A stretch of DNA of 64,000 nt from Candidatus Borrarchaeum weybense (lineage in GTDB: Archaea > Asgardarchaeota > Sifarchaeia > Borrarchaeales > Borrarchaeaceae). Of this stretch, positions 12,544 to 52,262 are shown one piece after another (position 1 is the first letter of the stretch; each line of letters opens with the position of its first letter). Position numbers and translations under genes: made by a program. Location: contig JAHQJS010000004.1 of NCBI GenBank assembly GCA_019057385.1, positions 1,201,068 to 1,265,067 on the forward strand, given 5' to 3'. The notes under the pieces are model-generated. The model did not search any database. It worked only from the letters and a program-made list of their open reading frames with translations, and was not told where the DNA came from.

Positions 12544-12792
12544 TTACTTGAAAAGCCAATCTTCTCTTTTCTTTTTCATATGAGTCTCCAAGACAGTCTT
12601 TGTATGAATGTCTCCTACTGTTTCAAAAACCATGTGTGACTGAAGGGGTTTTTTTCTAGCTGGTTCAAATCCCTGAACTGGGCACAGTTCTATTGGTGTT
12701 TTAGCTAGAACTTTATGTTCAAAACAATCGCCTTTGACTTCATCTACTGGTTTGTAGTATTTACAATCCCTACAAATGAACTCTTCACGCAT
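12544..12792 (-). CDS. Small Cys-rich protein resembling glycyl-radical enzyme small FeS subunits (BssC/AssC/HpdC-like)
   Basis: CRDCKYYKPVDEVKGDC...CP four-Cys pattern; the original SD (GGAGAGGAAGGGAAATG) lies beyond the insertion at 13125-13142. Confidence 0.5.
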   Translation of the reverse strand: MREEFICRDCKYYKPVDEVKGDCFEHKVLAKTPIELCPVQGFEPARKKPLQSHMVFETVGDIHTKTVLETHMKKKREDWLFK

Positions 12793-13134
12793 TTCCCTTA
12801 GGGAAGCGCCTGCCCTTTAGGGTGGGGAAGAATTGAGGGTGTTTTTCACTTTTATTAGGGCCTCTCCACTTTTAAATACGTGTTCTGAGATAGAGGTACG
12901 TGGTCTAAAGGCACACCTCTCATAGAAGTGGAAATGGTTAATGACCTCAAGGATGAGGAGCAGTAAACTGGTATAGCCCGACTCTATATGAGGATTACTG
13001 GGCTGGGCTGCGGTAAACACGCCCATGTGTTAGCGTGCGATGAGGTTGAAACTCTTTTGCAAAGAAGAGGACTGAGACCAAGCACAGCTAAAAGCCTCAC
13101 TGCTTTAGCGTGAGGTAGTTTACGCATTTCCCTT
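12787..13134. repeat. 13-bp direct repeat ACGCATTTCCCTT at both junctions of the element
   Basis: Exact copies at 12787-12799 and 13122-13134. Confidence 0.95.
12789..13123 (+). mobile_element. Non-autonomous IS200/IS605-type element carrying a TnpB-type omegaRNA only
   Basis: Left hairpin CCTGCCCTTTAGGGTGGGG-AAGAATTG; right end AAGCCTCACTGCTTTAGCGTGAGGTAGTTTAC; internal GGGCTGCGGTAAACACGCCC; TATA TTTAAATA 12871-12878; no credible protein. Confidence 0.8.
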
Positions 13135-13322
13135 CCTCTCCTTTTATCAAATGAAATCGGAATCTTTCACAACGTCATTATATCGATTTATTCATGCAAG
13201 ATTAGTTGTTATTGTATCACTATAATATATTTTCATGATATAAAATATTTTGTATGAGTTTTTTGACGAAAACTATTAATCCTTAAAACAATTAAGATAA
13301 TGTTCTAAAATGGTCTTAGGAG

Positions 13323-14369
13323 GTGAATCTATTAGTAGGATCTTACAGGCTGACTAAAGCAGTAAGGGTTCATGGTTGATCCTGTAAGTTGCCCCAAGCA
13401 GACCTAGAAAAGTTACTAGAGAGCATAGAAGTCTATCTACCCGAAGGTTCAGTTAAAGAGAAAATGTTAGCAGGAGCAGGAGATGACGCCGCAGTAATAC
13501 AGATTAGAGATGATCTAGCACTTATTGAAACTGTAGATTTTTTCACACCAAATATTGACGAGCCAATGATTCAAGGAGAAATCTCTGCATGTAATACAAC
13601 TAATGACATTTATGCGATGGGCGCTGTAGACATTCTTAGTGTACTAGTTGTTATGGGTGCACCAACAAATATGCCTTTTGAAATCTCTCGAGATCTTTTA
13701 AAGGGATTTAAAAATTTCTGTGAACGTCTAGGAACACACATTGTCGGCGGACATACTATAATAAATCCATGGCCTTTCATTGGTGGTTGCGCACTAGGTT
13801 TGGCGCACCCAAATAGCGTTGTCTATAATCGCGGTGCAAAAGTTGGAGACATTCTTCTCTTAACAAAACCTTTAGGAACGCAACCTGCGATGGCAGCATA
13901 TCGTTTACTCAAAGAAGAACAACAATTAATTGATTTATCTGAATATTTACCCACTAAAGTAATTGATCGTGCAATACAAAAAGCAATTGAGATAATGACA
14001 ACAACAAACAGGCCAATAGCAAAAATTATGCAGGAAATCAAGGTTAATGCCGCAACGGATGTAACCGGCTTTGGATTGACTGGGCATGCACGTGAAGTAG
14101 CAACACAAAGCAAGGTAAATATTGTGATTGATACTATGCCGATCATAAAAGGAACTAATATCCTTTCTGATCAACTAGGCTATTCATTAATGGAGGGTAC
14201 ATCTGCAGAGACTGCTGGAGGAATGTTACTCTCGTTATCACGTGATAATGTTGATCTATTCAAAGAAAAACTAATAGAAAGAGGAATAAAATCCTTTGAA
14301 ATAGGGCATGTTAAGGAGGGCAGCGGACAGGTGAATATTGTGCCTGATATAAGAATTATTGAAGTTTAG
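13323..14369 (+). CDS. selD: Selenophosphate synthetase, selenoprotein (TGA=Sec at 13377-13379)
   Basis: In-frame extension upstream of the track ORF reads YRLTKAVRVHG-U-SCKLP, the SelD catalytic Cys/Sec loop; GDDAAV, TVDFFTP, ATDVTGFGLTGH, AETAGGML. Confidence 0.93.
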
Positions 14370-14443
14370 ACGGCGCGTAATGAAAAAGACAGAAACCGCA
14401 AGGAGGGTCTTTAGAGCTTTCCACCAATGCAGGTGGCACCGTC
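14369..14443 (+). promoter_or_regulatory. SECIS-like element in the selD 3' UTR
   Basis: GACGG 14369-73 pairs with CCGTC 14439-43; ATGA 14380-83 opposite GA 14414-15; AAAGAC/GTCTTT stem; AGAAA bulge and CC-GCAA-GG apical stem. Confidence 0.8.
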
Positions 14444-14463
14444 AATATCCTCATATCTAAATT

Positions 14464-15372
14464 CTATTTCTCTCCATAGTCAACATTGCCAAATGCTTTG
14501 TTGTATTCATTGCTGAGTAACTCGTCGACCACATGCGTATACTTCTGCGTCGTAGATAGATTTGAATGCCCCAGCTGTTGTTGAATAACCCTTACATCCA
14601 TACCTCTGGATAAAGCAGTCGTAGCAAAGAAATGTCGTAGTTTATGACAACTGATAGCGGGATTTATACCTGCCAGATCTCGATATTTTGCAACTATATG
14701 TTGAATGGTACGAATGGCAATTCTTTTCCCATTCCTACTTATAAATAATGCATCATTTTCTTCGATCTTAGGTCGGATTTTTAAGTAATCGTTGATTAGA
14801 TCAAGCGCTGTAGTGCTAATTTTAACGTATCTGTGTTTTCCTCCCTTTGAAACAAGCCTTAGCGTTTCCTTTTCAAAATTGATATCTTTTAAACTCAAGT
14901 TATGGATGCCTTTTACACGAGCTCCAGTATAGATAAAAACAGCTAAAATCGCTAAATCACGAGTCTTATAATTTGAATTTCCTTCTTTGACAGTCTCAAT
15001 AAGTTTATGTATTTCTTTTTCCGTGGGAAAAATTGGCAATGTATGATCTAGTTTTGGTGTTTTGATTTCACCCATTGGACTTGTCTTAAGGTATTTCTCT
15101 CTTAACAAAATGTCATAGAATGTTCTGAGAGTCGAAACCTTTCGAGCTAAAGTGGTTTTTTTGTATCCTTTATCGCGTTTTAAATGAACTAAGAAGGCTC
15201 TAATATCTCTTGTTGTGGCATTTATAAGGGGTTTTTTAGTGAACTTGGAGAACAACGTCAGATCGTGAAGATACTGATTAAGGGAGGAACTTGCAAGCCC
15301 TTCTTCAACTTCTTTGATCACACGGAATTGATCGATTAATTCTTCATCAGATAAAACTTTTGTTTCCGACAT
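14464..15372 (-). CDS. xerA: XerA-like tyrosine recombinase
   Basis: YTGARV, KGGKHR, HKLRHFFAT, LGHSNLSTTQKY catalytic set plus N-terminal SAM-like domain. Confidence 0.82.
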   Translation of the reverse strand: MSETKVLSDEELIDQFRVIKEVEEGLASSSLNQYLHDLTLFSKFTKKPLINATTRDIRAFLVHLKRDKGYKKTTLARKVSTLRTFYDILLREKYLKTSPMGEIKTPKLDHTLPIFPTEKEIHKLIETVKEGNSNYKTRDLAILAVFIYTGARVKGIHNLSLKDINFEKETLRLVSKGGKHRYVKISTTALDLINDYLKIRPKIEENDALFISRNGKRIAIRTIQHIVAKYRDLAGINPAISCHKLRHFFATTALSRGMDVRVIQQQLGHSNLSTTQKYTHVVDELLSNEYNKAFGNVDYGEK

Positions 15373-15545
15373 ATTCGAAACTTCCGCAAGAACGGTATTT
15401 AGTTATTCTAATTTTGATTCATAGATTTAAAGCTTTATATTTTTAAGATTTCTGAGATTTTTATCCGCTTTTGTAGAGGATAAACATTAATATCGGGATG
15501 TTTTATTTCAAATGATCTAAAAGGTTTAGTAACATCTTGATAAGA

Positions 15546-15875
15546 TCATTTTAGAATCCTTTTCCATTTTGGTAAGTCTCTTTGTCTGTATTTTTCAATT
15601 ACCTTTATTAAGACCGCTTCGAGATCAATATTTCTCTTATTTGCCAAAGATATCAGTACAAATAGTAGATCACCAATTTCTAATTCTAATTCCGCTTCAA
15701 AATTGATGTGCGAATCTTCTTTTGCTATAGGACGAAATCCTTTTAGGCGCTGCAAAACGTGTGCAATTTCACCTAATTCTTCTATCATTCGAGCTAAGAT
15801 AATGGGATCTTCCCAGTATCCTCCTATTTCATTGATAAATTCATCAACGATTTTTTGAAGTTCTCGTAATTCCAA
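15546..15875 (-). CDS. MazG-like nucleotide pyrophosphohydrolase (YpjD-like)
   Basis: ARMIEELGEIA...ELEIGDLLFVL. Confidence 0.85.
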   Translation of the reverse strand: MELRELQKIVDEFINEIGGYWEDPIILARMIEELGEIAHVLQRLKGFRPIAKEDSHINFEAELELEIGDLLFVLISLANKRNIDLEAVLIKVIEKYRQRDLPKWKRILK

Positions 15876-16091
15876 TGGTCTTCCCTCATCAGTGATATAT
15901 TGAAAAAATGTAATTTTTTAATCTTATTTTGTAAGAATTTATCTAGTAACAAAACTCCTTTTCTGAGTTCCTCTATCAGATCTCAAGGGATGGATATGAA
16001 CGCAATCAGATCTCTTACTGAAGTAATTCTCACAAAATATAAAAATAATGATTGTGGTGCTTTTACTAAGTAACGAAGCGAAGTGATATCC

Positions 16092-16580
16092 ATGAGGATT
16101 GAGTTACCAGGTAAAAACTGCGAAAACTGCGGTAAATGCGTTATTCTATGCCCAGATAATCTTTATGTCGTTGACCTGACCACAGAAAAAGCGGTAATAG
16201 CTGATGATACCGTTTTTAATGAATTAGAAGATCGTATAAGTGGCGCCTTACTTACATTAATTAAGGAGCAAATACATAGTGATGGAAAAGTTACCGATGA
16301 TGAAAAAGCGCTCCTAGGTGTTATCACACGTAGTTTCTCAACGTTTAGTAATATGAGAAAAGTCGCGGAGCCAATTCTATTTTCAGCAAAAAAATATCTC
16401 TTCAAAAAAATCTGGGAAGAAGCAATAAAGGACGATGTCATTAGCGAAGATGAGCAAGCAATACTTGACATCATGGTTGATAAATTAAAAATCGCCCCAA
16501 ATGAAAAAGAACAATTCATTTCGGAAGTTGAAGCCGAAGCGGCAGCTATTAAGAAGTTAAAGCAAAAATTGGCAAAGTAG
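16092..16580 (+). CDS. 4Fe-4S motif protein with TerB-like acidic repeats
   Basis: CENCGKCVILCP; DGKVTDDEKALL and DDVISEDEQAIL repeats. Confidence 0.6.
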   Translation: MRIELPGKNCENCGKCVILCPDNLYVVDLTTEKAVIADDTVFNELEDRISGALLTLIKEQIHSDGKVTDDEKALLGVITRSFSTFSNMRKVAEPILFSAKKYLFKKIWEEAIKDDVISEDEQAILDIMVDKLKIAPNEKEQFISEVEAEAAAIKKLKQKLAK

Positions 16581-16764
16581 GTTTTCACCATAATTATTTA
16601 TAACAAGCCTTCCTTTTTGATTTTAAAACTTACCTTTTTACTGAGATTACTGTTCTAGTGGATTTTTTTAGTTTTTACGCGTCTTTTAATTTTATAGGGG
16701 TCATGTTTGTTCACTTTCTTCACAGATCCAAAATTCTCGATAGGAATATCTAAATCAGTTAGGT

Positions 16765-17095
16765 GTGAACTACCACCTAACGAGTGAGGTGGCTTCTGTC
16801 CTCCTAGACTGTTCTGCTTAGCCAACACGGTTGGACACATGCAGCCTAGTCATCGACAGTTCGGGCTGGTCAACGGCAGCCCCCGTCCCTCAAGGGACAC
16901 TTGAGGTCCGACAGTACCCTCATCGGTACTGTGTCTTGTGTACGCCCTTCACGCTAAGCCAGACACCTTGGATACCGCATATTTTTATTGTAATTAACTG
17001 CTATTTAAGTTGAAGGAGACCTGTGTGAAAGTGAAACAAGTAAAAGACGCAATTCATCCCCCCAACAAGTTAGGAGGTCTTCTTGCGGTAGATCT
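16765..17095 (-). mobile_element. Non-autonomous IS200/IS605-type element carrying a TnpB-type omegaRNA only; TAM TTTAT
   Basis: Minus strand: TTTAT|AGATCTACCGCAAGAAGACCTCCTAACTTGTTGGGGGGATGAATTG ... TTAAATA (17002-08) ... GGGCTGCCGTTGACCAGCCC ... GAAGCCACCTCACTCGTTAGGTGGTAGTTCAC; junctions supported by an intact paralogous site at 17159-17186. Confidence 0.88.
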
Positions 17096-17158
17096 ATAAA
17101 TTGTAGAAAGACCTTTCGTCAACGGTGATGCCTCCTTTTATGAAGGAAGATTTATCCA

Positions 17159-17186
17159 CAGTTAGGTATAAAATATAGAAAGACCT
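17159..17186 (+). promoter_or_regulatory. TATA-containing 28-bp unit, intact copy of the site split by the element
   Basis: CAGTTAGGTATAAAataTAGAAAGACCT versus split copy CAGTTAGGT (16756-64) + ATAAAttgTAGAAAGACCT (17096-17114); about 40 bp upstream of ATG 17209. Confidence 0.75.
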
Positions 17187-17208
17187 CACATAAGTAGTGG
17201 TGAAAAAT

Positions 17209-17844
17209 ATGCCTTTACAACCATTCACAAGGAATTTTAAAGATGAAAGTACACATACAGGATTTCAGTTTACATTTTATTGCGACAATTGTGGCGACGG
17301 CTACAAAACAAAATTCATAGAGTCAAAATCCTACAAGAAGAAAGGCCTTCTAAGAAAACTTTCAAAGGCAGTCTCAACTGCAGGCCGTTTTACTGGAACT
17401 GGGTCATTTAGTCTTGGATATGGATATGAAAGTTATCCGCCTGCATGGCATAAAGAGCACGAAAAAGCTTTTGAAAAAGGCTGGAACGAAGCCATAGAAC
17501 ATTTCCATAAATGTCCGAACTGTGGTAAACATGTCGATGACAACTGCTGGAATGGCCAGACGGATCTTTGCACAAAATGTTCCCCAAGAGAAGCAATAGA
17601 AGTAGCTGTAGCAAGATCGGATAAAATGAGGACAGATATAAGGGCAAAGGCTGCCCAGACTGAAGTATTTACTGGAGAAGTCGATAAAAGAACGACATTA
17701 TGTCCAGAGTGCGGTCAACCTGCTGGCGAAGGCAAATTCTGTAGCGAATGTGGTGCCCCTCTCGCACAAATCCAATGTCCCAATTGTGGAACACCGCTTA
17801 AACCTGGCACAAAGTTCTGCAACGAATGTGGAAAGAAACTCTGA
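17209..17844 (+). CDS. Multi zinc-ribbon (double zinc ribbon) protein
   Basis: GFQFTFYCDNCG and repeated CxxCG...KFCxECG units. Confidence 0.85.
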   Translation: MPLQPFTRNFKDESTHTGFQFTFYCDNCGDGYKTKFIESKSYKKKGLLRKLSKAVSTAGRFTGTGSFSLGYGYESYPPAWHKEHEKAFEKGWNEAIEHFHKCPNCGKHVDDNCWNGQTDLCTKCSPREAIEVAVARSDKMRTDIRAKAAQTEVFTGEVDKRTTLCPECGQPAGEGKFCSECGAPLAQIQCPNCGTPLKPGTKFCNECGKKL

Positions 17845-17926
17845 AAAAAACGTCTTAGCATCGTTTAAAAGAATAGTACAAAATTTGTACTGTTATCACC
17901 CCCTAATTTTTTCTTTCTTAAAATAA

Positions 17927-18913
17927 TTATTCTCCTTTTTCCAATATGACAGACGTCTTTGGGTACGGAATTTCTATGTCTTTATCTGTTAATGCGTTTT
18001 TAATGTTTGCCAGCATTCTGCTCTCGGTTTCGAAAAGTCCTCCTGCCTTAGTTGTATCCACAAAAACCTTTGCTTCCATATTAACAGAAGATTCGCCAAA
18101 TTTTGTTATGACTACCTCTATCGGAGTAAAATAGCCCTGACCATCTATTCCTTCTTTTGCTGTAGCAGGGTCATTTCTCAGAACTTCTTGTATAATTTTT
18201 ATGGCTTTCGATACGTCTGACTCGTAAGATATATTAATCTTATGAAAAAGTCTTCTTAACCGGTGCTCTGAATAATTAACTATTGCTTCCTTATCAACCA
18301 TCGAATTAGGCAGGTTAATTGGAGTATTGTCAGGCGCAACTATAGTTATTGAACGCAAACTCATAGTCCTAACTGTGCCTACTATGTTTTTCCCTTTAAG
18401 GTGAATCCAATCTCCGATCTTGAACGGCTTGTCAAGTATGAGGGATACCCCAGAGATGAAGTTAGAAAATGTCTGCTGCGCAGCAAGCCCCAAAACGATA
18501 CCTGCAAAACCTGCACCGACTAATAAGCCCTGAATAATTCCAACAAGTTCAAATACTCCTAAAGTCCATATAACAGCTACGACTAAAATACTGATTTTAA
18601 TCAGGTTTTTGATTAACATACTTACTCTGAGAGGTATGTCCTTAACCCGTTCTATCACTTTGATATAAACTTCTATACTTAGTCTTACAACGTACACTGC
18701 GCCAATCCATATAATTGCTATCAGTACCAATTGAGCCATGAAAGGATTGTTTGTACTGAACAGCACCCAATAAGAATTGAGGTTGTATCGCAACACAAGA
18801 AAGATCAAAATCGCTAAGATAACGATTATTGGAATCAACTTACGGCTTAATATGCCGCCTACAGTCTCTCGTACGTTATAGTTCTTTATTTTCTTAATTT
18901 CTATCTCCTCCAA
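17927..18913 (-). CDS. mscS: Small-conductance mechanosensitive channel MscS
   Basis: GLAAQQTFSNFISG...KPFKIGDWI, LPNS, FGESSVN. Confidence 0.92.
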   Translation of the reverse strand: MEEIEIKKIKNYNVRETVGGILSRKLIPIIVILAILIFLVLRYNLNSYWVLFSTNNPFMAQLVLIAIIWIGAVYVVRLSIEVYIKVIERVKDIPLRVSMLIKNLIKISILVVAVIWTLGVFELVGIIQGLLVGAGFAGIVLGLAAQQTFSNFISGVSLILDKPFKIGDWIHLKGKNIVGTVRTMSLRSITIVAPDNTPINLPNSMVDKEAIVNYSEHRLRRLFHKINISYESDVSKAIKIIQEVLRNDPATAKEGIDGQGYFTPIEVVITKFGESSVNMEAKVFVDTTKAGGLFETESRMLANIKNALTDKDIEIPYPKTSVILEKGE

Positions 18914-19811
18914 ACTGCTTAATAATTTTATAAGTTTAAAATGTACATAAAGCCATTTATCTTAATTTGAAATAATCAAACCCTAAAATTCGAATAGAAA
19001 ATACTTTTTAACGCAAGGAAAACGTTAGAAACTCACTAAAAATTCTAATCTTACTTTATATCCCTGCAGGTATCAAATTCTATCCTTTCCTCGTTGATTA
19101 AAATGGGTTCAACATAGAAGGAATATTCGATCAAACGGAAACTGTCAAAGTTCTCCTCTTTTGTTCCTTCTCTGAATTAGTGAACTAACTCACTATTAAA
19201 TCCCTCACACCAATATTTGAAATGAATTTTATAAATATAACGGGTTGGAAAATATTAGACTAAATAGTATTTTTTCATTTCATTCTTTTATTGTTACTTA
19301 CCATCGCACTCTGATGCTTTTTATGAAAAGTGATGTTCTTGCCGATTTTTAACTTTGTCATTTTTTCCTACCAGTTTAATATAACTGATATAAAGAAAAT
19401 ATTGAAATACTAGAGCGTGGAGAAGAATTGATATTAATATAGGGAAAATTTTGACTGGAATGCCAGGTACAGCGCTTTACGTTGCCGGAATATTTAGGAT
19501 GAACAATGAATCAATAAGAGATCTTTAAATATTGAAGGGAGGTTTTAAGAATATCTTTTTTTAGTAAGCCTATATTAATCACTTTTGAAAAAACATCGTT
19601 ACATTTATATGTATCAAATTAAAAATAATAGTCAATAATATATGCAAGATAATTTGTAGTTCTATTGAATACTAAATGAAGTAATTGAAGAAATTCTTTT
19701 TGAATTACTCGTTAAACAATTTCCTATCTTGTTCTTCACTTAGAAGATAGTAAAGGTCTTTTAGAAGTTGCCAGTTCTACACGTTTGTTTGCAATATGGA
19801 TGAAAGTAAGT

Positions 19812-20993
19812 ATGAGTTCAAATACCGTAGAAGACGTTTTTTCAAAGGGTTTTGTAAGCGTCAATGAAAATGAAACACTCTCTAATTGCTTCTCGCTCTT
19901 TAAAGAAGAATTAACACCAGTCTTAATTGTTTTAAACAGTAAAGGCCGATATAAGGGTATATTGACACTCCGATCGATAATCAGGTCGAGGTTCGATCCA
20001 TCCACAACTAAAGTAAACACCTTAATGCGTTCTGCGCCTGCTATTACAGTGCAGGATTCTCTTAGTAAAGTTGCTCGATTGATGATAGAGAGTGAAGTTA
20101 AAGAACTTCCAGTTTACAGTAGTGAAAAACTCGTAGGAGTAATTAAAGACGAAGATATCATTCATGAAGCTGTCATCAATGAATGGGGAGACACAAAAGT
20201 TAAGGAAATAATGAGCAAAAAACCATTTGTTGTTGAAGAGGATGATTCAGTAGCAGAAATAATAAGTCTCTTTAAAGATCAAGGCATTTCTCACGCACCT
20301 GTTGTGTATAAGGGTAAACCAACTGGAATGATAAGCATTCAAGATATTATTGACAGCGTTTACATCCCAAAAGAAAGTGAAACATCTACTGAAAGACGGG
20401 GGGCAGGAGAAAATATCAAAGTTATGAGTGCAAAAGTGAGTGGTATAATGTCAAAGCCACTCATTACGGTTTCGCCTGAAACTAATTTGCGAGAGACCGC
20501 AGAGAAAATGCATGAATTTGATATTTCCTCATTGGCGGTTGTCAGTGATGAAAGGATTGTAGGCATTGTGACAAAAAGAGATTTTCTTGAACCAATTGCA
20601 CAAATAGAGCCGAAAGGTAGGTTTCTCATACAATTTACCATTAAAGATGTGAACATAGACGATACCCAAGAAAAAATGATTATGGATGATTTCGAATCGT
20701 TCGAAAATAGATTTGAAGAAACACTAGAAGCCGGTACACTTTTCGTCTACCTGAAAAGTCATGGCGCAAACATCAAGGGAGATCAACTTGTTCATTGCCG
20801 TCTTCATATGCGATCAAGAAAAGGCTACTTCTTCAGTTCTAGTGAAGGGTGGGGGGTAGAAGAAACCTTCCGCCTGGCGTTGGATAGACTTGAAAGAAAA
20901 ATTTTGAAAAGCAAAACATTTCAAGCCGATCCAGAATTTGCTAAAACATATTTACGACGATTCCCTATAGTTGAAGACAAGAGGAAGTTCTAA
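19812..20993 (+). CDS. 4xCBS protein with C-terminal HPF/RaiA-like domain (candidate ribosome hibernation factor)
   Basis: Four CBS repeats, then HCRLHMR...FFSSSEGWGVEETFRLALDRLERKI; start may be 19800 or 19785. Confidence 0.75.
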   Translation: MSSNTVEDVFSKGFVSVNENETLSNCFSLFKEELTPVLIVLNSKGRYKGILTLRSIIRSRFDPSTTKVNTLMRSAPAITVQDSLSKVARLMIESEVKELPVYSSEKLVGVIKDEDIIHEAVINEWGDTKVKEIMSKKPFVVEEDDSVAEIISLFKDQGISHAPVVYKGKPTGMISIQDIIDSVYIPKESETSTERRGAGENIKVMSAKVSGIMSKPLITVSPETNLRETAEKMHEFDISSLAVVSDERIVGIVTKRDFLEPIAQIEPKGRFLIQFTIKDVNIDDTQEKMIMDDFESFENRFEETLEAGTLFVYLKSHGANIKGDQLVHCRLHMRSRKGYFFSSSEGWGVEETFRLALDRLERKILKSKTFQADPEFAKTYLRRFPIVEDKRKF

Positions 20994-21047
20994 AAGCAAA
21001 GCATTTCAATACGATCCAGAATTTGCTAGGACGTATTTAAGACGATT
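20907..21047 (+). repeat. Imperfect 56-bp tandem duplication of the gene's 3' end
   Basis: 20907-20962 versus 20992-21047, sharing CGATCCAGAATTTGCTA. Confidence 0.85.
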
Positions 21048-21159
21048 TTACATGACGTATCTCTAAGAAAAACCAAAATTAAAACAAACAAATCAAATCT
21101 ATGGTTTAGTTTGCTTTCTGTAATATACTAGGCGTAAAATAATTCAAAATTGAGTTGAA

Positions 21160-22092: not shown

Positions 22093-22263
22093 CGTGGTGA
22101 CATTCTTCGAGTTTATCGCTTTTTCGTTAAGAAGGTTAAAAAACAGAATTTCATATAAAAAAATAGGAGGCGACTGTAATTATGGGTAGCAGTGATCATA
22201 CTGATCGTCATTTTCGGGGCAAAAAGACTTTCCAGTAAACCAAGAAATAAGAGGTGATTAAAA

Positions 22264-22722: not shown

Positions 22723-22879
22723 TTTTTTTAATTCAATTTTAATTGAATTTTCAGAAAATTGAATTCAATAGGAGTAATATTATTTGACTAATTCGACCCT
22801 TTATGGAAAAAAGACTTCTCAAAAAGGAACCTCTTTTACAGAAATAATCCATATACTTATCGGAACTATTCTTGTGGCC

Positions 22880-39796: not shown

Positions 39797-39806
39797 GTGG
39801 ATAATT

Positions 39807-42389: not shown

Positions 42390-42490
42390 TCCTTTTGATT
42401 TTAACTTTTTCACTTGTAAGAAAGGCATTTCTTCACCGAATTAGTTAAATGTAGGAAGAATCTAAGGACTATCAAAAAGGTGGCGGAATT

Positions 42491-43699: not shown

Positions 43700-43912
43700 G
43701 TAGCTCACTACTCTACAGTTCAGAGATTCAAGAGACAGTCTCTCATCATTATCTTCAAGGAATTAGTGATAAATTCATTCTATTTTCTATAACTTTATTT
43801 TTCTCAATGTGTGACGTCCTTATTGACTTTCTACCCATTTTCGCAACATTTATAAACTTCGCCGAAGAAATTGCGCTTTCAATTAACTTTTATCGCGAAA
43901 GGTGAACTCGAA

Positions 43913-45055
43913 ATGGAAAGTGAAATAACAAAATACCTATCTGAAACAATTGGTGAGCGACTTGCAGGATCTGAAGCTGATCGAAAAGCAGCAGAGTATA
44001 TCGCAGGGAAAATGAAAGAACTTGGGTTAGAGGTCGAATACCAAAAATTCAAGTTTGTTGGCTGGGAAATAACTCGGAAAGCAAGATTAGAACTATTACA
44101 ACCTGAGCAGAAGGAAATCCTCACAGGGAGTTTAATGTTTAGTGAGAGTACTCCTGAGGGAGGCATTATAGGAAAGATTAAGTACGTCGGAATCCAGTAT
44201 GTAATCCCCAAGCTCTTCGAATGGCCCAAGTATGCCATAGTCGATGACAAGGGAAATCATCTTGGTTACATTTTGGCTCATATAGATGGGCCTGCTATGA
44301 ATTTCGTATTGACTGATATGGGAAAAGATTATGGATGTGCCCCTTACGTTATAGTTGGGCAAGAGATACATACTTATTTTCAAGAAAAATTAGCAGCTGG
44401 CGAAGAAATAAGTGTAAGAATGGATACCGCTGGAAAACATGCGCCAAGTCTTGAAACGCAGAACGTAATCGGTACGCTACGAGGTTCTGCTTTACCAGAT
44501 GAAGAAATAATTGTATGTGGACACTATGATTGTGGTTTTGAATCTCATGGTGCTGATGATAATGCAAGCGGTATAGATGCTATGTTAAGAGCAGCTAAAG
44601 CGCTAGTTGAGAAGGGCGGAACTAAGAAAACAGTGAAATTTGTCGCATTCGGGGCTGAAGAATATCTCCTTTATGGGTCTTATTATTATGCTAAAACATT
44701 AAAAGAACAAGGACAGCTTGCTAGAGTAAAAAATGTTATCAATCTTGATATGGTGGGCTCAGGGGAATTCTTGTGGGTCTGGGTAGCTCCTGAAAGTTTT
44801 AAACAACAAGTTGCCGATGCCTTGGATCAATCTATTAAAGGTGAGTTTGATATCCAATGGAATCTAGAACTCCTCCCCGCAAGTGATCACTGGCCCTTCT
44901 TTGAAGAAGGGGTTCCGTCGGTACACCTCATTTTCTGGCCTTATGAATATCTGCATCAAGAACATGATAGTTACGATAAAATTGAAGTAGATAAAATCGA
45001 AAAGGCAGCAAAAGCGACAACAGCCATAGCTGAACGCCTAGCTGGTGTGAGCTAA
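43913..45055 (+). CDS. M28 family metallopeptidase
   Basis: GHYD, GADDNASG, AEE, NLDMVG, SDH; SD AGGTGA precedes ATG 43913. Confidence 0.9.
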   Translation: MESEITKYLSETIGERLAGSEADRKAAEYIAGKMKELGLEVEYQKFKFVGWEITRKARLELLQPEQKEILTGSLMFSESTPEGGIIGKIKYVGIQYVIPKLFEWPKYAIVDDKGNHLGYILAHIDGPAMNFVLTDMGKDYGCAPYVIVGQEIHTYFQEKLAAGEEISVRMDTAGKHAPSLETQNVIGTLRGSALPDEEIIVCGHYDCGFESHGADDNASGIDAMLRAAKALVEKGGTKKTVKFVAFGAEEYLLYGSYYYAKTLKEQGQLARVKNVINLDMVGSGEFLWVWVAPESFKQQVADALDQSIKGEFDIQWNLELLPASDHWPFFEEGVPSVHLIFWPYEYLHQEHDSYDKIEVDKIEKAAKATTAIAERLAGVS

Positions 45056-45160
45056 GTCGTTTTTTTACTTTTTTTTCCATTTGTAACAAGACTATATTTA
45101 TAATACGTCTTATATGAAAAGAAGATATCACTCTGATATTATTGAGAAGGTGAATTTAAA

Positions 45161-46309
45161 ATGGTAAGTGAAGTAACGAAATACTTATCTGAAACAATTG
45201 GTGAGCGACGGGCAGGAACTGAAGCTGATAAAAAAGCGACAGAATATATTGCTAGGAAAATGAAAGAGATTGGATTAGAAGTAGAGATCCAAAAATTCAA
45301 GTTTCTTGGTTGGGAAATGACTCGAAGACCGATGTTAGAATTAGTAGAACCTCAGCAAAAGGAATTACCCTCAGGCGTTTTTATGTTCAGTGAAAGTACT
45401 CCAGAAGGAGGCATCACGGGGAAATTAGAGTACATCGGGATCATGCCCTTCATACCTAAGCTTTTTGAATGGCCAAAATACGCTGTTGTTGATGACGCTG
45501 GAAATCATCTTGGCTATATCATAGGACATATTGATGGACCAGCTATCAATTTCACACTTATGGAAATCGGGAAGACATATGGATGTGCACCCTATATCAT
45601 GACAGATCAGGAAACCCATGAATATTTTCAGGAGAAACTAGCTGCTGGTGAAGAAATCCGCGTGCGCATAGATACCGCTGGAAAACTTGTACCTGGTCTT
45701 GAGACACAAAACGTAATCGGTACGCTACGAGGTTCTGCTTTACCAGATGAAGAAATAATTGTATGCGCTCATCACGACAGTACTTATGAATCACATGGAG
45801 CTAATGATAACGCAAGCGGTGTAGATGCTGTATTAAGAGTCGCAAAAAATTTAATCGAGAAAGGGGGAACTAAGAAAACAGTGAAATTTATCACCTTTGC
45901 AGCCGAAGAATATCTCTTTTTTGGATCTTACTATTATGTAAAAACACTAAAAGAAAAAGACCCCTCCAGTATTGCTAGAATAAAAAACGTCGTAAACCTG
46001 GATATGGTCGGCGTAGGAGAATATCTATGGGTATGGGTGGCTCCTGACAGTTTTAGACATCAAGTTGACGAGGCTTTGAAAGAGTCCATCAAAGATGAGT
46101 TTGATATTCAATGGAATCCCGAACTCCTTCCTGCGAGTGATCATTGGCCTTTCTTTGAACAAGGTATTCCCTCTGTAATGTTAATTTTCTGGCCTCACGA
46201 ACAATATCATCTCTCGACCGATATGATCACTGAAATTGACGATGATAAAATCGAGAAGACAGCAAAAGCAGCGACAGCTATAGCCGAACGTCTAGCAGGT
46301 GTTAATTAG
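45161..46309 (+). CDS. M28 family metallopeptidase (tandem paralog)
   Basis: AHHDS, GANDNASG, AEE, NLDMVG, SDH, YH. Confidence 0.9.
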   Translation: MVSEVTKYLSETIGERRAGTEADKKATEYIARKMKEIGLEVEIQKFKFLGWEMTRRPMLELVEPQQKELPSGVFMFSESTPEGGITGKLEYIGIMPFIPKLFEWPKYAVVDDAGNHLGYIIGHIDGPAINFTLMEIGKTYGCAPYIMTDQETHEYFQEKLAAGEEIRVRIDTAGKLVPGLETQNVIGTLRGSALPDEEIIVCAHHDSTYESHGANDNASGVDAVLRVAKNLIEKGGTKKTVKFITFAAEEYLFFGSYYYVKTLKEKDPSSIARIKNVVNLDMVGVGEYLWVWVAPDSFRHQVDEALKESIKDEFDIQWNPELLPASDHWPFFEQGIPSVMLIFWPHEQYHLSTDMITEIDDDKIEKTAKAATAIAERLAGVN

Positions 46310-46362
46310 TCTTATTTTAACTTCCTTCTTTTCTATAGTTTAGTCTTATTCTTCTTTTACAC

Positions 46363-48177
46363 TTAGGGATGAAATTTCTTGAAAATGTATGTTGCCACTG
46401 TATCAGAAATTGAGGGAATGCTTTCTAACTCTTCGATAGAAGCAGTCTTTATCTTTTCAAGCGATCCAAAATAAGAAAGTAAATCTTGTTTTCGTTTTTT
46501 TCCAACTCCTGGAATTTCATCGAGTACAGAATGTGTAACTCTTTTTCTTTTGAGTTTTCGATGATAATTTATAGCAAATCTGTGAGCTTCATCTCTGACA
46601 TTCCTTAATAATAGTAATGCTATATTTTCTTCTGGGAGACTTATTGGTTCATCCTTTTCACGAATATAGATTTCTTCATTTTCCTTAGCTAATGCTATGA
46701 TATCAATTTTCTTCAGATCTAAATCATGGATTACCTCAACAGCTGTATGCAAGTGACCTTTTCCACCGTCAATTAGAATTAAGTTTGGCAGGGTTTTTCC
46801 TTCTTTGATAACCCTCTTATATCGACGGTGCACTATTTCTTGCATCATGGCATAATCATCTTGCTGATATACACTCTTGATTTTAAAATGACGATATTCT
46901 GATGGTTTAGGTTTGCCATTGATGAAAACTGCCATTGCGCCTACCGACGCTTCCCCCCTAATATTTGAAATATCAAAAGCCTCTATTCTGTAAGGTAATA
47001 CTTGAAGTCCTAATACGTTCTTTGTTTCTTCAAGTATGCGTTTTGACGTTTCTGACGACTCTTCGATTTTTCCCTGAATCAATTGAATCTGGGCATTTTT
47101 GTTGACCAATTTAACGAGATTTAGTTCATTTTCCTGTTCTGCAACTCGAATGCTTACTGGTCGCTCCTTGTATTTTTGCAACCATTGTTGAATTACTTGA
47201 ACCTCGTCTTTGTCTATATTTTGCGGAAGGATTATTTCGTTGGGGACAGTCTTTCGCATGGCATAGTATTGTTTGATAAACCCGGTCAGTAATTCATTGT
47301 CATCATCTTTGAAAAATCGTAACAAGAAATGTTCATTCCCCATAATTCTTCCTTCTCTAATAAAAAACACCTGTACACCTGCACGTTTTCCTTTTTTCGC
47401 CAATCCGATTATATCTTGATCTACGGTCACGAGATCTGTTGAGACGACTCGTTGTCTTATTTGAATCTTTTTCAAGGCATTTATTTGATTCCGAATATGT
47501 GCGGCAGTTTCAAATTCTAACTTGTCTGAATGAACCTTCATCTTTCTTTCTAATTGAGCAAGAATTTCTTCGAAACGTCCCTCCAAAAAAAGAATCGCTT
47601 GACGAATCATTTCTTGATATTTTTCTTTTGTTACAGACCCATTACACGGAGCAGAACACAACTTTATACTATAATCTAGACAAGGTTTGTATACCTTCTT
47701 TCCCAACTCTAGCGAACAGTTCGCAATCTGGAACAGTTTACGCATAGTTCTAAAGATTTTATTCAGATCCCATAAGCTAGTAAATGGACCAAAATACTGT
47801 GTTCCATCACCTTCATCAACGTCTTTGGCTCGAACAAACAAGATTCTTGGCCATTCTTCATTGACTGTGATTTTAATATAGAGATAACTCTTATCGTCAA
47901 CAAAACGAATATTATAACGCGGTCGATAAATTTTAATGAAATTATTTTCCAAAATAAGTGCTTCTACGTCATTATTTGCTACTACAAAGTCAAAATCCTC
48001 AATTTTTTCGGCAAGCAATCGAATTCTGGGTGATTGAATACTCTTACTGTGGACGTAGTATGCCAGTCTTTTTCTTAGTGAATTAGCCTTCCCCACATAA
48101 AGAACTTTGCCTTTTTTTCCCTTCAGTAAATAAGTTCCAGGAACATCTGGTACCGTTTGAAGTTTGTCTTTTAGCAA
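46363..48177 (-). CDS. uvrC: Excinuclease ABC subunit C
   Basis: GIY-YIG (YVGKA), UVR domain, FDISN, DGGKG, RDEAHRFA, HhH. Confidence 0.96.
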   Translation of the reverse strand: MLKDKLQTVPDVPGTYLLKGKKGKVLYVGKANSLRKRLAYYVHSKSIQSPRIRLLAEKIEDFDFVVANNDVEALILENNFIKIYRPRYNIRFVDDKSYLYIKITVNEEWPRILFVRAKDVDEGDGTQYFGPFTSLWDLNKIFRTMRKLFQIANCSLELGKKVYKPCLDYSIKLCSAPCNGSVTKEKYQEMIRQAILFLEGRFEEILAQLERKMKVHSDKLEFETAAHIRNQINALKKIQIRQRVVSTDLVTVDQDIIGLAKKGKRAGVQVFFIREGRIMGNEHFLLRFFKDDDNELLTGFIKQYYAMRKTVPNEIILPQNIDKDEVQVIQQWLQKYKERPVSIRVAEQENELNLVKLVNKNAQIQLIQGKIEESSETSKRILEETKNVLGLQVLPYRIEAFDISNIRGEASVGAMAVFINGKPKPSEYRHFKIKSVYQQDDYAMMQEIVHRRYKRVIKEGKTLPNLILIDGGKGHLHTAVEVIHDLDLKKIDIIALAKENEEIYIREKDEPISLPEENIALLLLRNVRDEAHRFAINYHRKLKRKRVTHSVLDEIPGVGKKRKQDLLSYFGSLEKIKTASIEELESIPSISDTVATYIFKKFHP

Positions 48178-48210
48178 CGGCTTTCAGCCTCGATAATAAA
48201 TCTTCAATAT

Positions 48211-49215
48211 TCAACTAATTTTTAACACGGCTGCTCCATTAAATCGACTATATTTAAGGTCACTCAGAGCTTGATTTGCATTTTCCAATGAATAAGGGAC
48301 AGTTTCCGTTTTTATTTCGATTTCCTGGGCTATTTTCAAGAATTCGATGGCATCTTGACGTGTAACATTTGCAACGCTCACAATCTTACGCTCATGCCAT
48401 AAAAGATCCCAGGATATCGGCGGAATATCTGATAAATAGATCGCATTTATAGCTAAAGTGCCACCACGATCGAGTTGTTGAAGTATATCCAACACTAAAG
48501 GTCCGGATGGCGCAAATGAGATCGCTCTATCTATTTTTTTAGGAGGTATATCTTTAGAAGTTCCAACCCAAGCAGCATCAAGTTCTTTCGCGTGTTCTTG
48601 ATGTTCTTTTGAGCGAGTGAAGACAAAAACCTCACAATCCCAATGGTTAGCAATCTGAATTACTATATGTGCAGAAGCTCCAAACCCAAACAACCCCAGT
48701 GTTTCGCCAGGTTTTACTTCTGACAGTCTAAGGGACCTATAACCAATGACTCCCGCACACATTAAAGGAGCGGCTTTAATATCATCAAAAGATTCTGGTA
48801 GAAGATAAATATAATCGCTGGGAGCGGTTACAAATTCTGCAAAACCGCCATTCTCACTAAATCCGGTGAATTTGGCATGTGGACATAAGTTTTCTTGGCC
48901 TCGAACGCAATATTTACAAGTTTGGTCAGTAGAATAGAGCCATGCAACACCCACACGGTCTCCTTTCTTAAAATTCTTTACGTTTTCCCCTAATTCATCA
49001 ACGACAGCCACAATTTCATGTCCAGGTACGATAGGTAATTTGGGTAGGGGATCTAATTCACCCTCAACGATGTGTAAATCTGTGTGACACACGCCACAGG
49101 TTTTTAATTTAAGTAATACTTCATCCTCAGATAGTGGTCTTTTAATGGGAATGTCCTCCAATTCGAGTGGCGAGTTTTCGATACTATCAGGCTTTCTAAG
49201 AACCATAGCTTTCAT
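48211..49215 (-). CDS. Zinc-dependent alcohol dehydrogenase family protein
   Basis: CGVCHTDLH, GHEIV, APLMCAG, GLFGFG. Confidence 0.9.
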   Translation of the reverse strand: MKAMVLRKPDSIENSPLELEDIPIKRPLSEDEVLLKLKTCGVCHTDLHIVEGELDPLPKLPIVPGHEIVAVVDELGENVKNFKKGDRVGVAWLYSTDQTCKYCVRGQENLCPHAKFTGFSENGGFAEFVTAPSDYIYLLPESFDDIKAAPLMCAGVIGYRSLRLSEVKPGETLGLFGFGASAHIVIQIANHWDCEVFVFTRSKEHQEHAKELDAAWVGTSKDIPPKKIDRAISFAPSGPLVLDILQQLDRGGTLAINAIYLSDIPPISWDLLWHERKIVSVANVTRQDAIEFLKIAQEIEIKTETVPYSLENANQALSDLKYSRFNGAAVLKIS

Positions 49216-49434
49216 AATCAAAACCACTTGCTTTTCTCTTCAATTATCTTGTTTATCATACTTTCACAGGAATGCTCAATCAGTGTTTGGGATCAATTTA
49301 CTTATAATGATATTCAAGTGAGCAGTAGTCATTTTGTCCCCTCTTCTTGTAGAGATCATAATTTTAAGAAGGGATATGAGCGAAAAAATGGTCACCGAAA
49401 AAATAGGAGAAAAATATATTCAATTTAACCATTA

Positions 49435-49875
49435 TTAAATAGAAAAACTCCATTCACAGCCTTCCATATACGCTGGCGGAAGCCTTATTGGTCTTACTCT
49501 AATATTTGGATTTATTTCCTTCGCAAATGCTATAAAATAAGCTCCACTGACTGGTTCGCAAACGAATCTAGTTCTATCAGCCTTTTTCATTGCTTCAAGA
49601 GTTCGGCAATATTCAATATGAAGAATAGCCTCGCTATCAGTGAGCATCTCATAATGGCATTCTACTTGAAGCATGAATGGTGCACGAATCAATATTTCTA
49701 GAGCCGTTTCAAGTGAACTGTCCTGTACATTGAATAACGATCTCAATCGTTTTGCTTCTTTTCTTCCATATTTTTTCCATACATCAACGTCTATTTTTAA
49801 AGCGCTTTCATAATCAGTCATTTTCTCTGTTGTCAGAAACCATAACGCATCCATAACAAAGAATAAATCACTATA
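49435..49875 (-). pseudogene. 3' part of a DUF6125-like gene interrupted by the tnpB element
   Basis: YSDLFFVMDALWF...C...C...C; joins in frame with 51308-51375. Confidence 0.8.
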
Positions 49876-51310
49876 GTTACTACTTTCGTAGAAAAATATT
49901 AAACTTCTTCCATACTAACCACAGGAACAAGTGGAAAGTAGTTAGAGGACTGGGGACCATATACTCCCAGGGATAGCCCGCGATCTCGTATGTTGCATGC
50001 GGCGTTATAGTCGGCGTCACCCTTATAACCGCAAGCTGGACATACGAATTTTTCATCTCGACGGATACCCCTGCTTCCACACTTGTGACAGACTTGACTC
50101 GACCAGTATGGGTACACCTCTATCAGGAAAACACGGTTTTCCTCGCAGAGCAACTCCAATTTGGTACAAGCATGACGATAAGCCCAGTGTGAGAGCAGTC
50201 GGTTAGTGTAACGATTTCTTCGCTTCTTTTTATATTTTCGCGCTTTCTTACTTCGTCCTTTCTTCACATCTCGTAAGCGTTCGATCACTAGCACTCTTAT
50301 TCTCGTGAAATCTATCTTCTTCAACTCACTATTGATGTGTTCTTTAATTATTAGGTGGCTTTTTTTCCTTCTGTAAAACCGCTCTATTTCCTGTTTCAAT
50401 GTTCCTCCAACGATTTGACCATCAGATATCACTGCTAGTTTGCGAAAGCCCAGGTCCAGACCTACCATCTCTCCCAATTTTCTTATTGGGGGCAGTTGCT
50501 TCTCGAAGAAGACATCAAGGAAAAAGCCTTGTTTGGTTCTTCGTAGCCTACAGGACTTCAATAACTCCCAACCCTTATTATAAAAAGAGTTAAAGTGATG
50601 ATGTCGTTTGGTTGGCAGATAAATGGGTCTGCCACCTAAAATAGAGATTTTGATCCAGAGGTCAAAGGTGTTGTTGCCTTTTTTAATTTGCGCAAAGCGT
50701 TGGTCCAGTTCAAGTGTGGCTTTACAAATGACTGGTTTGGTTTTTTTGGTACGTTTACGCTGAGACTTGACATTCTGGAGTGCCTGTTTGGCGGCACATT
50801 GCTTGTATCGTTCTGTCAGTGATGTCCTTATGTGCAGGTAATATTTTTTAGGGACAAATGAGCCTTCGAATATATTATGATTCCAGAGGGTGTTGATGCA
50901 TTTCTGCATAAAACTGAGATATTCATCAATTAAGTTATTCAGTATACTTTGTTTAAGTTTAGTCACATAGTTTAAGCTAAGGGTGGCCCGCCTAATCACG
51001 ATATTCTCAAATCCTTTCGTATCTCGATATTAAACTATTAGTTACTAAGACACGTACTTAAGAAGAGTATTAGTCTTTATGATGCGGCTTTACAGAGTTA
51101 GTATATACAATCACCTTTTTTTAAGAACAGACTCCCCTTTGTATAAGTAAAATATCAAAAAAGAAAACCGCTTTCAGCGTTATGAAGTTAGGCAAATTGA
51201 GAGGAAACCTGATTGTATGATTACTTCTGATATAACCTCATTAAAACAAATTATGGCGATGTGTTTACGCGTTTTCTATGATTTCTATATTTTTACCTAA
51301 ATCTCTTTCA
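49871..51310 (-). mobile_element. IS607-like tnpB element lacking tnpA (1440 bp; junction ambiguous within an 8-bp repeat)
   Basis: TATAGTGA at both junctions (49868-75, 51308-15); removal restores a 166-aa ORF; TAGAAA-type subterminal repeats at both ends. Confidence 0.8.
49899..50999 (-). CDS. tnpB: RNA-guided endonuclease TnpB
   Basis: RuvC-I GLDLG, RuvC-II VIERL, Zn finger CHKC/CPAC, RuvC-III DADYNAACNI; catalytic D-E-D present. Confidence 0.93.
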   Translation of the reverse strand: MIRRATLSLNYVTKLKQSILNNLIDEYLSFMQKCINTLWNHNIFEGSFVPKKYYLHIRTSLTERYKQCAAKQALQNVKSQRKRTKKTKPVICKATLELDQRFAQIKKGNNTFDLWIKISILGGRPIYLPTKRHHHFNSFYNKGWELLKSCRLRRTKQGFFLDVFFEKQLPPIRKLGEMVGLDLGFRKLAVISDGQIVGGTLKQEIERFYRRKKSHLIIKEHINSELKKIDFTRIRVLVIERLRDVKKGRSKKARKYKKKRRNRYTNRLLSHWAYRHACTKLELLCEENRVFLIEVYPYWSSQVCHKCGSRGIRRDEKFVCPACGYKGDADYNAACNIRDRGLSLGVYGPQSSNYFPLVPVVSMEEV

Positions 51311-51375
51311 CTATACATTTTAATTAGTTCAATTAAGTCGTGTTTCGAAAAATCCTTGAAGTCTGCTATTTTCAT
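51308..51375 (-). pseudogene. 5' part of the DUF6125-like gene
   Basis: SD AGGTGA, then ATG 51375: MKIADFKDFSKHDLIELIKMYS. Confidence 0.8.
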
Positions 51376-51453
51376 AAGCTCACCTAATTTCGCCTCTTAC
51401 TTGTTTCAGAACTTCAGATAGTACCAAAAAACGTAGATGAAGAGTAAAATAAT

Positions 51454-51861
51454 TCAAAAATTAAATCTGACGGATAATATGTCTTTTATTTTAGTGATAA
51501 AAACTTCAGCATCATTTATAGCGCTTCTTGCGTCATCTTCTGATATAAAAGAGACTATTCCGTAATCCGCGCTTTCTCTAAATGAAAGTAATTTATTTAG
51601 AATTCTACCAAACTTTTCTTCTAAGAGGCCTTCTTTAATAACCCGGATTCCAAAAACAACTTGGAGACCTTTGTGTGTTCTTGTATCTTCTCCTAAAAGA
51701 TATAAAAGTGCTTTTGAAGCATGAAAAACACTATAGTAGGCTCGACTGATCGCATCCTCGTAAAATTTATTTTTAAAGAGAAGCTGAGCTGCAGAAATTG
51801 CTTTATCTGATCGCTCTATATACTCTTTGGCAATCTTGAACGTGTTTTCTTTTTCACTCAT
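51454..51861 (-). CDS. HEPN domain protein
   Basis: DAISRAYYSVFHASKA, THKG, RESADY; start ATG 51861. Confidence 0.9.
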   Translation of the reverse strand: MSEKENTFKIAKEYIERSDKAISAAQLLFKNKFYEDAISRAYYSVFHASKALLYLLGEDTRTHKGLQVVFGIRVIKEGLLEEKFGRILNKLLSFRESADYGIVSFISEDDARSAINDAEVFITKIKDILSVRFNF

Positions 51862-51863
51862 AA

Positions 51864-51998
51864 TTACCACCTCAAGGAGACCCCCCAACATGTTGGGGGG
51901 AGGAATTGAGGTTGGGCGTTGCTCACACTACCCTTTCTGCGGAGACAGGGTTTGGTGTACCCAACCTCAGGTGGTGTGTTAATGACGGGTACTCGCAA
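51864..51998 (-). pseudogene. iscB: iscB remnant (N-terminus fused to C-terminus)
   Basis: TTG start MRVPVIN... joined to ...QFLPPTCWGVSLRW; PLMP, RuvC and HNH parts missing. Confidence 0.6.
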
Positions 51999-52009
51999 GT
52001 CCCGCCGCT

Positions 52010-52262
52010 CCCCACACCAAGGGAGTAGGTTCTCTTCGCCAAAGTTATCAGTCAGTACTATACGATGATCACTGAGAGTTTCCTCTCTGTTTAAACCACC
52101 GTTTACAGAGCAAAGGACTAGAGAAGCATCCTTTGGTGTGTTCTTGAACTCTCCTGATAACGTAGATACCGCCATAGACTATATGACCTCTCTTAGGCTA
52201 ATCAACCAATTACTCTTGCTCCTCACGGAACAAGCCCTCTATTTTTTTGGAGGGTGATTGAC
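52010..52262 (-). ncRNA. HEARO/IscB omegaRNA scaffold
   Basis: GTCAATCACCC..GGGCTTG, GTTGATTAGCCTAAG, CTACGTT, GGATGCTTCTCTAGTCC, TTTAAACAG, TTGGCGAAG in HEARO order; 3' boundary approximate. Confidence 0.82.

Follow-up and report, generated by a model that had tools for sequence, protein, structure and literature searches.

Three short DNA elements that appear to encode no protein of their own, termed E1, E2 and E3 in the following, are placed directly on gene-expression signals in a stretch of 64,000 nucleotides from the archaeon Candidatus Borrarchaeum weybense. This raises the question of what these elements are and whether their positions reflect a regulatory function. The stretch, referred to as the window, comprises G000:C4:1201068-1265067 of the source genome G000 (4.18-Mb, 37% G+C, 8 contigs). 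Positions given without a contig refer to the window, those with a contig but no genome to G000. Four further genomes of the same genus, G003 and G004 among them, served as sister genomes, and genus-wide counts refer to the five genomes together. A first-pass annotation of the window had proposed that the elements are guide-RNA cassettes which could form a dispersed RNA-guided regulatory or self-maintenance layer served by a TnpB or IscB encoded elsewhere. Our analysis supports this reading in part: E1-E3 are very probably non-autonomous, protein-less derivatives of IS200/IS605 elements that originated by internal deletion, comparable to palindrome-associated transposable elements (PATEs) or miniature inverted-repeat transposable elements (MITEs), and that may be kept via their omegaRNA and nucleases supplied in trans.

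The boundaries of E1-E3 were set by aligning family copies. The description of three elements of 330-400 bp with IS200/IS605-type ends was thereby confirmed to the base, the right ends terminating in ...GGTAGTTTAC at position 13123 (E1), ...GGTAGTTCAC at 16765 (E2) and ...GTGATTGAC at 52262 (E3). Each element is a member of a multi-copy family that occurs in the source genome and in the four others. Five full copies of the E2 family were detected in G000 and more in the sister genomes; the E3 family comprises, besides 12 iscB-linked copies, gene-less ones of which 9 are close and ~10 diverged. E1-E3 share subterminal hairpins at both ends with elements that carry tnpB or iscB. None of the small open reading frames (ORFs) within E1-E3 matches any Pfam family, and the only coding traces are remnants of the C-terminal part of tnpB, which agrees with the earlier statement that the elements lack an intact nuclease or transposase.

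Insertion occurred precisely 3' of a short target-adjacent motif (TAM) and without target-site duplication, as seen from the empty sites of E1 and E3 and from the reconstructed site of E2. The E1 target is uninterrupted and present as a single copy in G004:C120 and G003:C13, and E1 is inserted 3' of TTCAC in a conserved 82-codon gene, 4 nt behind the gene start, where it parts ATGC from GTGAAG.... In G003:C254 the genes encoding an MNT nucleotidyltransferase and a HEPN protein are contiguous (...ctcat/aatcgaatg..., the slash marking the junction); E3 is absent, its flanks are joined precisely and nothing is duplicated. In the window E3 splits the ATGA stop/start overlap of this gene pair. The MNT reading frame, which ends with ...GIRL and a stop codon in the empty site, now receives its last 12 codons and its stop codon from the right end of E3, resulting in a 12-residue tail. 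For E2 no clean empty site was found, the flanks being separated by 2.3 kb of unrelated genes in the only syntenic sister contig (G004:C120). The joined flanks of E2 form a 42-nt near-copy of the sequence at 17143-17186, located 72 nt downstream (score 53 versus a best score of 36 in 2000 shuffles). Since the joined flanks recreate this promoter repeat, the boundaries of E2 are confirmed as well. The presence of empty sites in the sister genomes argues against copies that were fixed in the same position across the genus.

The cargo of the three elements consists of guide-RNA scaffolds. The HEARO RNA of E3 reaches a score as high as the iscB-linked HEARO copies, and because an IscB element needs an RNA running inward from the right end with its guide located 5' in the flank, the orientation of the E3 HEARO on the minus strand fits. 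The last 152 nt of E1 share 92% identity with the right end of an element encoding a 308-aa TnpB (C7:821405-821556), and the tnpB remnant of E1, which covers the last 46 codons, is 89% identical to this TnpB (C7:821553) according to tblastn. Compensatory changes were detected in 7 base pairs of the E1 scaffold in an alignment of 23 copies. In E2 the remnant comprises ~34 last codons broken by a stop and shows 53-68% identity (tblastn) to TnpBs of 483-489 aa. Both remnants overlap the omegaRNA, TnpB omegaRNAs being located at this end of tnpB. A search of positions 12500-17400 against Rfam with a permissive E-value gave only noise at E1 and E2, and no curated TnpB omegaRNA family was matched.

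The host is an archaeon (the archaeal small subunit rRNA model scores 1223 bits in G000), hence the TATA box is the relevant promoter element. Internal TATA boxes had been annotated in the two TnpB-type elements; their distance from the right end is ~240-250 nt, and family alignments show them to be conserved. In the full-length element C7:821405-822680 the same TATA box as in E1 is followed ~25 nt later by an ATG, which identifies the E1 box as the parent's tnpB promoter, joined to the omegaRNA by internal deletion. The conserved scaffold of E2 starts ~35-40 nt downstream of its internal TATA box. The annotated cassette build of end, promoter, scaffold and guide is thus seen in the sequence, the guide having an inferred position. 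All features are listed in the table.

Table. Positions of E1-E3, their parts and the adjacent host features in the window, and left-end classes of the source genome
Feature	Position	Strand	Remarks
E1	12789-13123	+	335-bp protein-less TnpB-type IS200/IS605 derivative; family alignments, empty sites
E1 TAM TTCAC (family consensus TCAC)	12784-12788	+	located in codons 2-3 of the host gene (82 codons, minus strand)
E1 left-end double-stem hairpin (TnpA recognition structure)	12795-12840	+	kept in all copies, in common with the full-length element at C7:822680
E1 TATA box TTTTAAATA	12870-12878	+	invariant in four gene-less copies aligned with the full-length TnpB element
E1 omegaRNA scaffold	12900-13123	+	with tnpB C-terminal remnant (12970-13107) and terminal hairpin
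Presumed E1 omegaRNA guide	13124-13139	+	flank adjoining the right end on its 3' side; expected from TnpB omegaRNA architecture
Host gene of E1 (82 codons, CxxC protein)	12544-12792	-	start codon now in the E1 left-end tip; ORF start conserved in G004 and G003
E2	16765-17095	-	331-bp protein-less TnpB-type IS200/IS605 derivative; left end 17095, right end 16765
E2 TAM TTTAT (ATAAA on the plus strand)	17096-17100	-	~45 CGCAAGAAG-class left ends follow TTTAT
E2 internal TATA box TTAAATAG	17002-17009	-	conserved in 4/5 genome copies
E2 omegaRNA scaffold with tnpB C-terminal remnant	16765-16970	-	consensus fold -78.7 kcal/mol, 66 pairs
Presumed E2 omegaRNA guide	16749-16764	-	flank, by position only
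Promoter-like copy A	16734-16764 (left half), 17096-17114 (right half)	+	GGTATAAAT box split by E2
Intact promoter copy B, TATA GGTATAAAATATAG	17143-17186	+	serves the zinc-ribbon gene 17209-17844; box conserved in G004
E3	51862-52262	+	401-bp protein-less IscB-type IS200/IS605 derivative
E3 TAM CTCAT	51857-51861	+	reads as the HEPN start codon on the opposite strand, in the ATGA overlap
E3 left end	51862-51915	+	outer stem CCTCAA/TTGAGG, inner stem C6/G6
HEARO RNA (IscB omegaRNA scaffold)	52025-52262	-	RF02033, 132.4 bits (gathering score 83), model positions 1-211
Presumed E3 omegaRNA guide (5')	52263-52278	-	directly 5' of HEARO, in the last MNT codons
MNT nucleotidyltransferase gene	52223-52588	-	Pfam PF18765, PF01909
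HEPN gene	51454-51861	-	Pfam PF05168 (1.4e-22); ATG 51859-51861 retained as part of the TAM
Left-end class CGCAAGAAG			TAM TTTAT; ~45 copies
Left-end class CCTCAAGGAG			TAM TCAT; ~12 copies
Left-end class CCTCAAGGAAG			TAM TCAC; 3 copies (22 across the genus)
Left-end class AGCAAGAAAG			TAM TTAC; 6 copies

One could also regard E1-E3 as inert relics, that is as decaying deletion products without a working omegaRNA and without use of any nuclease, which persist through harmless insertion. The altered left-end tip of E1 described below and the lack of both a close TnpB-linked parent of E2 in this genome and a tnpA with matching ends would be in line with such an origin. The conservation pattern speaks against it, as the scaffold is the best-conserved segment of the gene-less copies: its pairwise identity is 92% in the E2 family (promoter region 78%, left end 69%) and 91% among the gene-less copies of the E3 family (corresponding middle segment 84%, left end 71%). 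Compensatory changes on both sides maintain several base pairs in the scaffold alignments, the TATA boxes are conserved across copies, the HEARO of E3 scores as high as those of the iscB-linked copies and the insertions postdate the divergence from the sister species. We therefore consider the relic explanation rather unlikely.

The deletion derivatives have kept the left-end hairpin, which sets the target motif, the parent's tnpB promoter in the TnpB-type pair, the full omegaRNA scaffold and the right end. According to the scenario favoured here, namely retention through the omegaRNA, they would be mobilised in trans by a Y1 TnpA, their omegaRNAs presumably take the adjacent flank as guide, and the survivors would be only those insertions that spare host expression. 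Judging from the sequence, retention by TnpB or IscB acting in trans is plausible, and self-maintenance via trans-supplied nucleases appears to be the best-supported mechanism by inference.

Candidate nucleases are encoded elsewhere in the genome, as the first-pass annotation had assumed. We detected 41 matches to the TnpB zinc-ribbon domain, 16 iscB genes with an RRXRR domain and 36 HEARO matches (RF02033), 28 of which exceed the Rfam gathering score. Twelve iscB loci adjoin a HEARO that is 88-92% identical to that of E3, none of them being located at the E3 locus itself, and the iscB example inspected contains the RuvC and HNH motifs. The D/E/D motifs are present in the 308-aa TnpB, the cognate of E1, and a crude motif scan found them in the cognate TnpBs inspected. 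For the three families no RuvC-dead partner was evident in a regular-expression scan for the RuvC residues of 40 TnpB ORFs, a crude approach in which a missing motif is no evidence of a dead enzyme. The partner of E2 is less certain. No tnpA with ends matching E1-E3 was found in the assembly.

Several points weigh against the favoured explanation. The E2 scaffold is only ~72% identical to the nearest TnpB-linked scaffold in the genome, which belongs to the TnpBs of 483-489 aa and leaves the compatibility of an E2 partner uncertain. The only Y1 tnpA gene of the assembly (C7:194191-194619) is part of a tnpA-tnpB element (C7:193950-195880) whose left-end hairpin differs. The standard transposition mechanism does not account for the altered left-end tip of E1. 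Furthermore, the high conservation of the scaffolds could partly result from recent spread instead of selection. The left-end hairpin of the Y1 tnpA element (...GGAAAGTTCCCTTCCGAAAGGTGGGGGATAAGAG...) is unlike the hairpins of all multi-copy families.

In IS200/IS605 elements the target is specified by the left end. A census of G000 yielded four left-end classes, each going with a TAM of its own (see table), and elements of the TnpB type and of the IscB type have these left ends in common, as do the gene-less derivatives of both. The parts of the left end that vary together with the TAM are the bulge and the outer stem: TCAT and TCAC occur with CCTCAA...AGGAATTGAGG, TTTAT with CGCAA...ATGAATTGCG and TTAC with AGCAAGAAAG. 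Two of the TAMs are the reverse complements of start codons, and both are paired with a stem that reads as a Shine-Dalgarno (SD) sequence on the opposite strand.

The element sizes form clusters at 46-47 nt (a single hairpin), ~251-258 nt, ~324-338 nt (the class of E1 and E2) and ~380-409 nt (the HEARO carriers), full-length elements having 1276, ~1351-1387, 1540 or ~1620 nt. The minimal elements of 46-47 nt (G000:C3:105358-105403, C5:7218-7263, C8:17167-17212, C4:923339-923384 and C7:400083-400129) are single hairpins that follow TTTAT or TTCAT and run straight into GGTAGTTCAC or GTGATTGAC as right-end motif, so that both ends are merged into one stem-loop. In the vicinity of an E1-family copy (C8:29176-29513) the left end of another IS200/IS605 element was detected within 5 nt in tail-to-head arrangement (G000:C8:29500-29550).

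If the cassettes acted as a dispersed regulatory layer, their flank-derived guides would steer TnpB, IscB or dead derivatives of these nucleases to promoters or start codons in a manner similar to TldR. The location of E1, E2 and E3 on expression signals suggests this idea, as do the TAM and 11-nt match of the E1 guide at its own left junction, over the start codon of the 82-codon gene, and the position of the E3 omegaRNA inside the MNT-HEPN transcription unit. We compared the 24 nt beyond the right end of 56 elements with both strands of the genome, recording the longest prefix match that follows the TAM core. The longest matches had 6-11 nt, similar to 150 random genomic 24-mers (mostly 7-10 nt), and for none of the 56 guides did a TAM-adjacent match elsewhere exceed chance; the best matches were 11 nt for E1 (its own left junction), 9 nt for E2 and 8 nt for E3. 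A full target exists for each guide in the empty site only, which is absent from G000. Taking furthermore into account that the cognate nucleases keep their catalytic motifs and that the TTTAT-class sites are not enriched in promoter zones (see below), the regulatory layer proposed in the first-pass annotation is not supported, and we regard it as highly improbable. The presumed guide of E3, in turn, has a perfect match of at least 16 nt beside the TAM in the empty allele of G003, where the flank is identical over 26 nt. Such a match to the empty allele is a prediction of a retention or homing function, not of regulation.

It is literally true that the elements lie at a start codon (E1), in a TATA box (E2) and at an ATGA overlap (E3), and the host signal survives all three insertions: E1 copies the ATG and the leader, E2 struck a redundant promoter copy and the TAM of E3 keeps the ATG. 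The genes were called by a crude procedure (greedy choice of ORFs that start at the first ATG and have 80 codons or more), which was the same for the insertions and for all TAM sites. Of 56 end-paired elements 44 are intergenic, and a gene end is found within 24 nt for 7 of the remaining 12; the intergenic share of all TTTAT sites in the genome is 28%. Such an intergenic bias is the pattern that would be expected from purifying selection. Within the TTTAT class 8 of 32 intergenic copies are located 16-70 nt from a called start, compared with 21% of the intergenic TTTAT sites (p = 0.33), so that no promoter enrichment was found. Pooled over the five genomes, the TCAT class has 27 independent junctions, and in 9 of them the ATG of the TAM is the start of an ORF with 80 codons or more. 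Called starts make up 3.1% of all ATGA sites and 14% of the non-genic ones. The resulting excess at start codons is ~2.4-fold (9/27 versus 14%, p ~0.009) by a crude test in which related copies are incompletely independent.

The possibility that the location bias is explained by TAM composition, which the first-pass annotation had itself named, therefore largely holds: the TTTAT class shows no excess, and what is left is the modest ~2.4-fold excess of the TCAT class at start codons. The placement results mostly from the signal-like target motifs (TCAC, TTTAT, TCAT) and from selection. The start-codon excess of the TCAT class fits a tolerance of insertions whose left end supplies an SD-like sequence. 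On the minus strand the left-end tip of E3 indeed contains the SD-like GAGGTGG 6 nt before the ATG of the HEPN gene, and the 3' end of the 16S rRNA (...GGATCACCTCCT) makes pairing with SD sequences of the GGAGG type available.

A TnpB-like gene (49899-50999, minus strand, 336-366 aa) is located 0.9 kb from E3 and is unrelated to it. It contains the GLDLG, LVIERL and DYNAACNI motifs; recognisable transposon ends and a second copy in the genome were not found.

The left end of E1 deviates from its family. TCAC directly precedes the left end in all 22 copies detected in the five genomes. The tip of E1 (12789-12799) is identical to the 11 nt following its right end (13124-13134), and the other 21 copies have TGATCCCCCTC at this position. 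By means of this tip the host gene gets back its ATG along with 7 nt upstream of it. Even the canonical tip agrees with the flank of E1 at 6 of 11 positions. In a census of such flank-copying scars that covered 56 + 17 elements, the identity between the tip and the flank prefix did not exceed 0-2 nt in 51 of the 56 elements, whereas C4:893175 alone reached 6 nt and E1 alone 11 nt. The other E1-like case, a 254-nt gene-less copy at C4:892922-893175, shares the first 6 nt of its tip (7 of 11 positions) with its own right flank. As only these two elements stand out, the copying of the flank by the tip is not a family property. A 13-bp repeat at E1 (ACGCATTTCCCTT) was considered as target-site duplication and was rejected, since the 21 other copies have a canonical tip and no duplication.

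As a speculative route to the E1 tip, the element may have been excised and the donor joint cut by TnpB 15-21 nt from the TAM. The TAM-proximal 3' end, partly trimmed, could then have annealed by microhomology to the left-end tip of a sister copy and primed synthesis, whereby the tip would have been overwritten by target sequence. A switch of template in the course of replication is just as possible. Via either route the variant would have been favoured because it restored the start of the host gene.

These observations can be combined into a further explanation, according to which the TCAT and TCAC subfamilies are adapted to start codons (ATGA/GTGA) and bring replacement translation signals along, the E1 tip is the scar of an RNA-guided cut-and-copy repair, and E1 exerts a TldR-like effect on the 82-codon gene. 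The outer left-end stem does read as an SD sequence (GAGGTGG or GAGGT) 6-8 nt before the retained ATG. The TAM-proximal end of the donor joint cut by TnpB might have primed synthesis on the sister copy and restored the host gene start. The presumed guide of E1 spans the original SD sequence and ATG of the host gene, and the tip creates a TAM plus an 11-nt match to this guide at the left junction, which might serve the E1 omegaRNA as a seed on the start codon. Taken as a whole we consider this combination improbable.

Compared with known systems, gene-less omegaRNA carriers are not without precedent. Archaeal MITEs or PATEs of the IS200/IS605 group (Haloquadratum walsbyi; ISC elements) are reportedly described mainly as palindromic ends. 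The genome studied here likewise contains short, hairpin-ended, non-autonomous copies, including the minimal forms of ~46 nt, but in contrast to those elements the retained cargo is a guide-RNA scaffold. As in HEARO RNAs (RF02033), which include copies without an HNH/IscB ORF, E3 matches the full model and has its guide 5' of the scaffold in the flank. What sets E3 apart is that it forms a mobile unit of defined length (401 bp) whose left end is of the TnpB type, and that it is embedded in the MNT-HEPN operon, so that it would be transcribed from the host promoter. With TldR proteins, nuclease-dead TnpB-like repressors whose omegaRNA guides are directed against host promoters, E1-E3 share only the general idea of a guide beside an expression signal. 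In contrast to TldR no RuvC-dead cognate was found in the crude scan, the guides have no match elsewhere, and the elements are mobile and multi-copy instead of being fixed beside a regulon.

PATEs often encode omegaRNAs on which TnpB must act in trans (Meers et al. 2023, PMC10055086), hence the class of protein-less elements carrying an omegaRNA is already described. Like the PATE-like elements of Geobacillus stearothermophilus (PMC10055086), E1-E3 have ends in common with tnpB/iscB elements, lack an ORF, keep the omegaRNA, presumably need TnpA and TnpB or IscB in trans, and follow clade-specific TAMs that are set by the left end. They differ in their archaeal host and in having a TATA box handed down from tnpB as predicted promoter. 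Furthermore, near-identical left ends are combined here with three TAM classes (TCAC, TTTAT, TCAT) and with cargo of both the TnpB and the IscB type.

Outside the three loci, the match of the 16S rRNA gene (G000:C5:332567-335232) extends over 2666 nt compared with 1478 model positions. This implies an insertion of ~1.2 kb in total, which may represent one intron or several. No mcrA gene was found in G000.

The locus offers clean examples from nature of gene-less omegaRNA carriers that persist in an archaeon, an empty site or a site reconstruction being available for each of them, and this archaeon holds far more guide-RNA scaffolds than nuclease genes. The apparent preference for expression signals is mostly expected from target motifs and selection, which calls for caution with proposals of a regulatory layer. 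The start-codon excess of the TCAT class together with its SD-like left end, and the tip of E1, are leads on how such elements limit damage to their host and possibly on homing repair in vivo.

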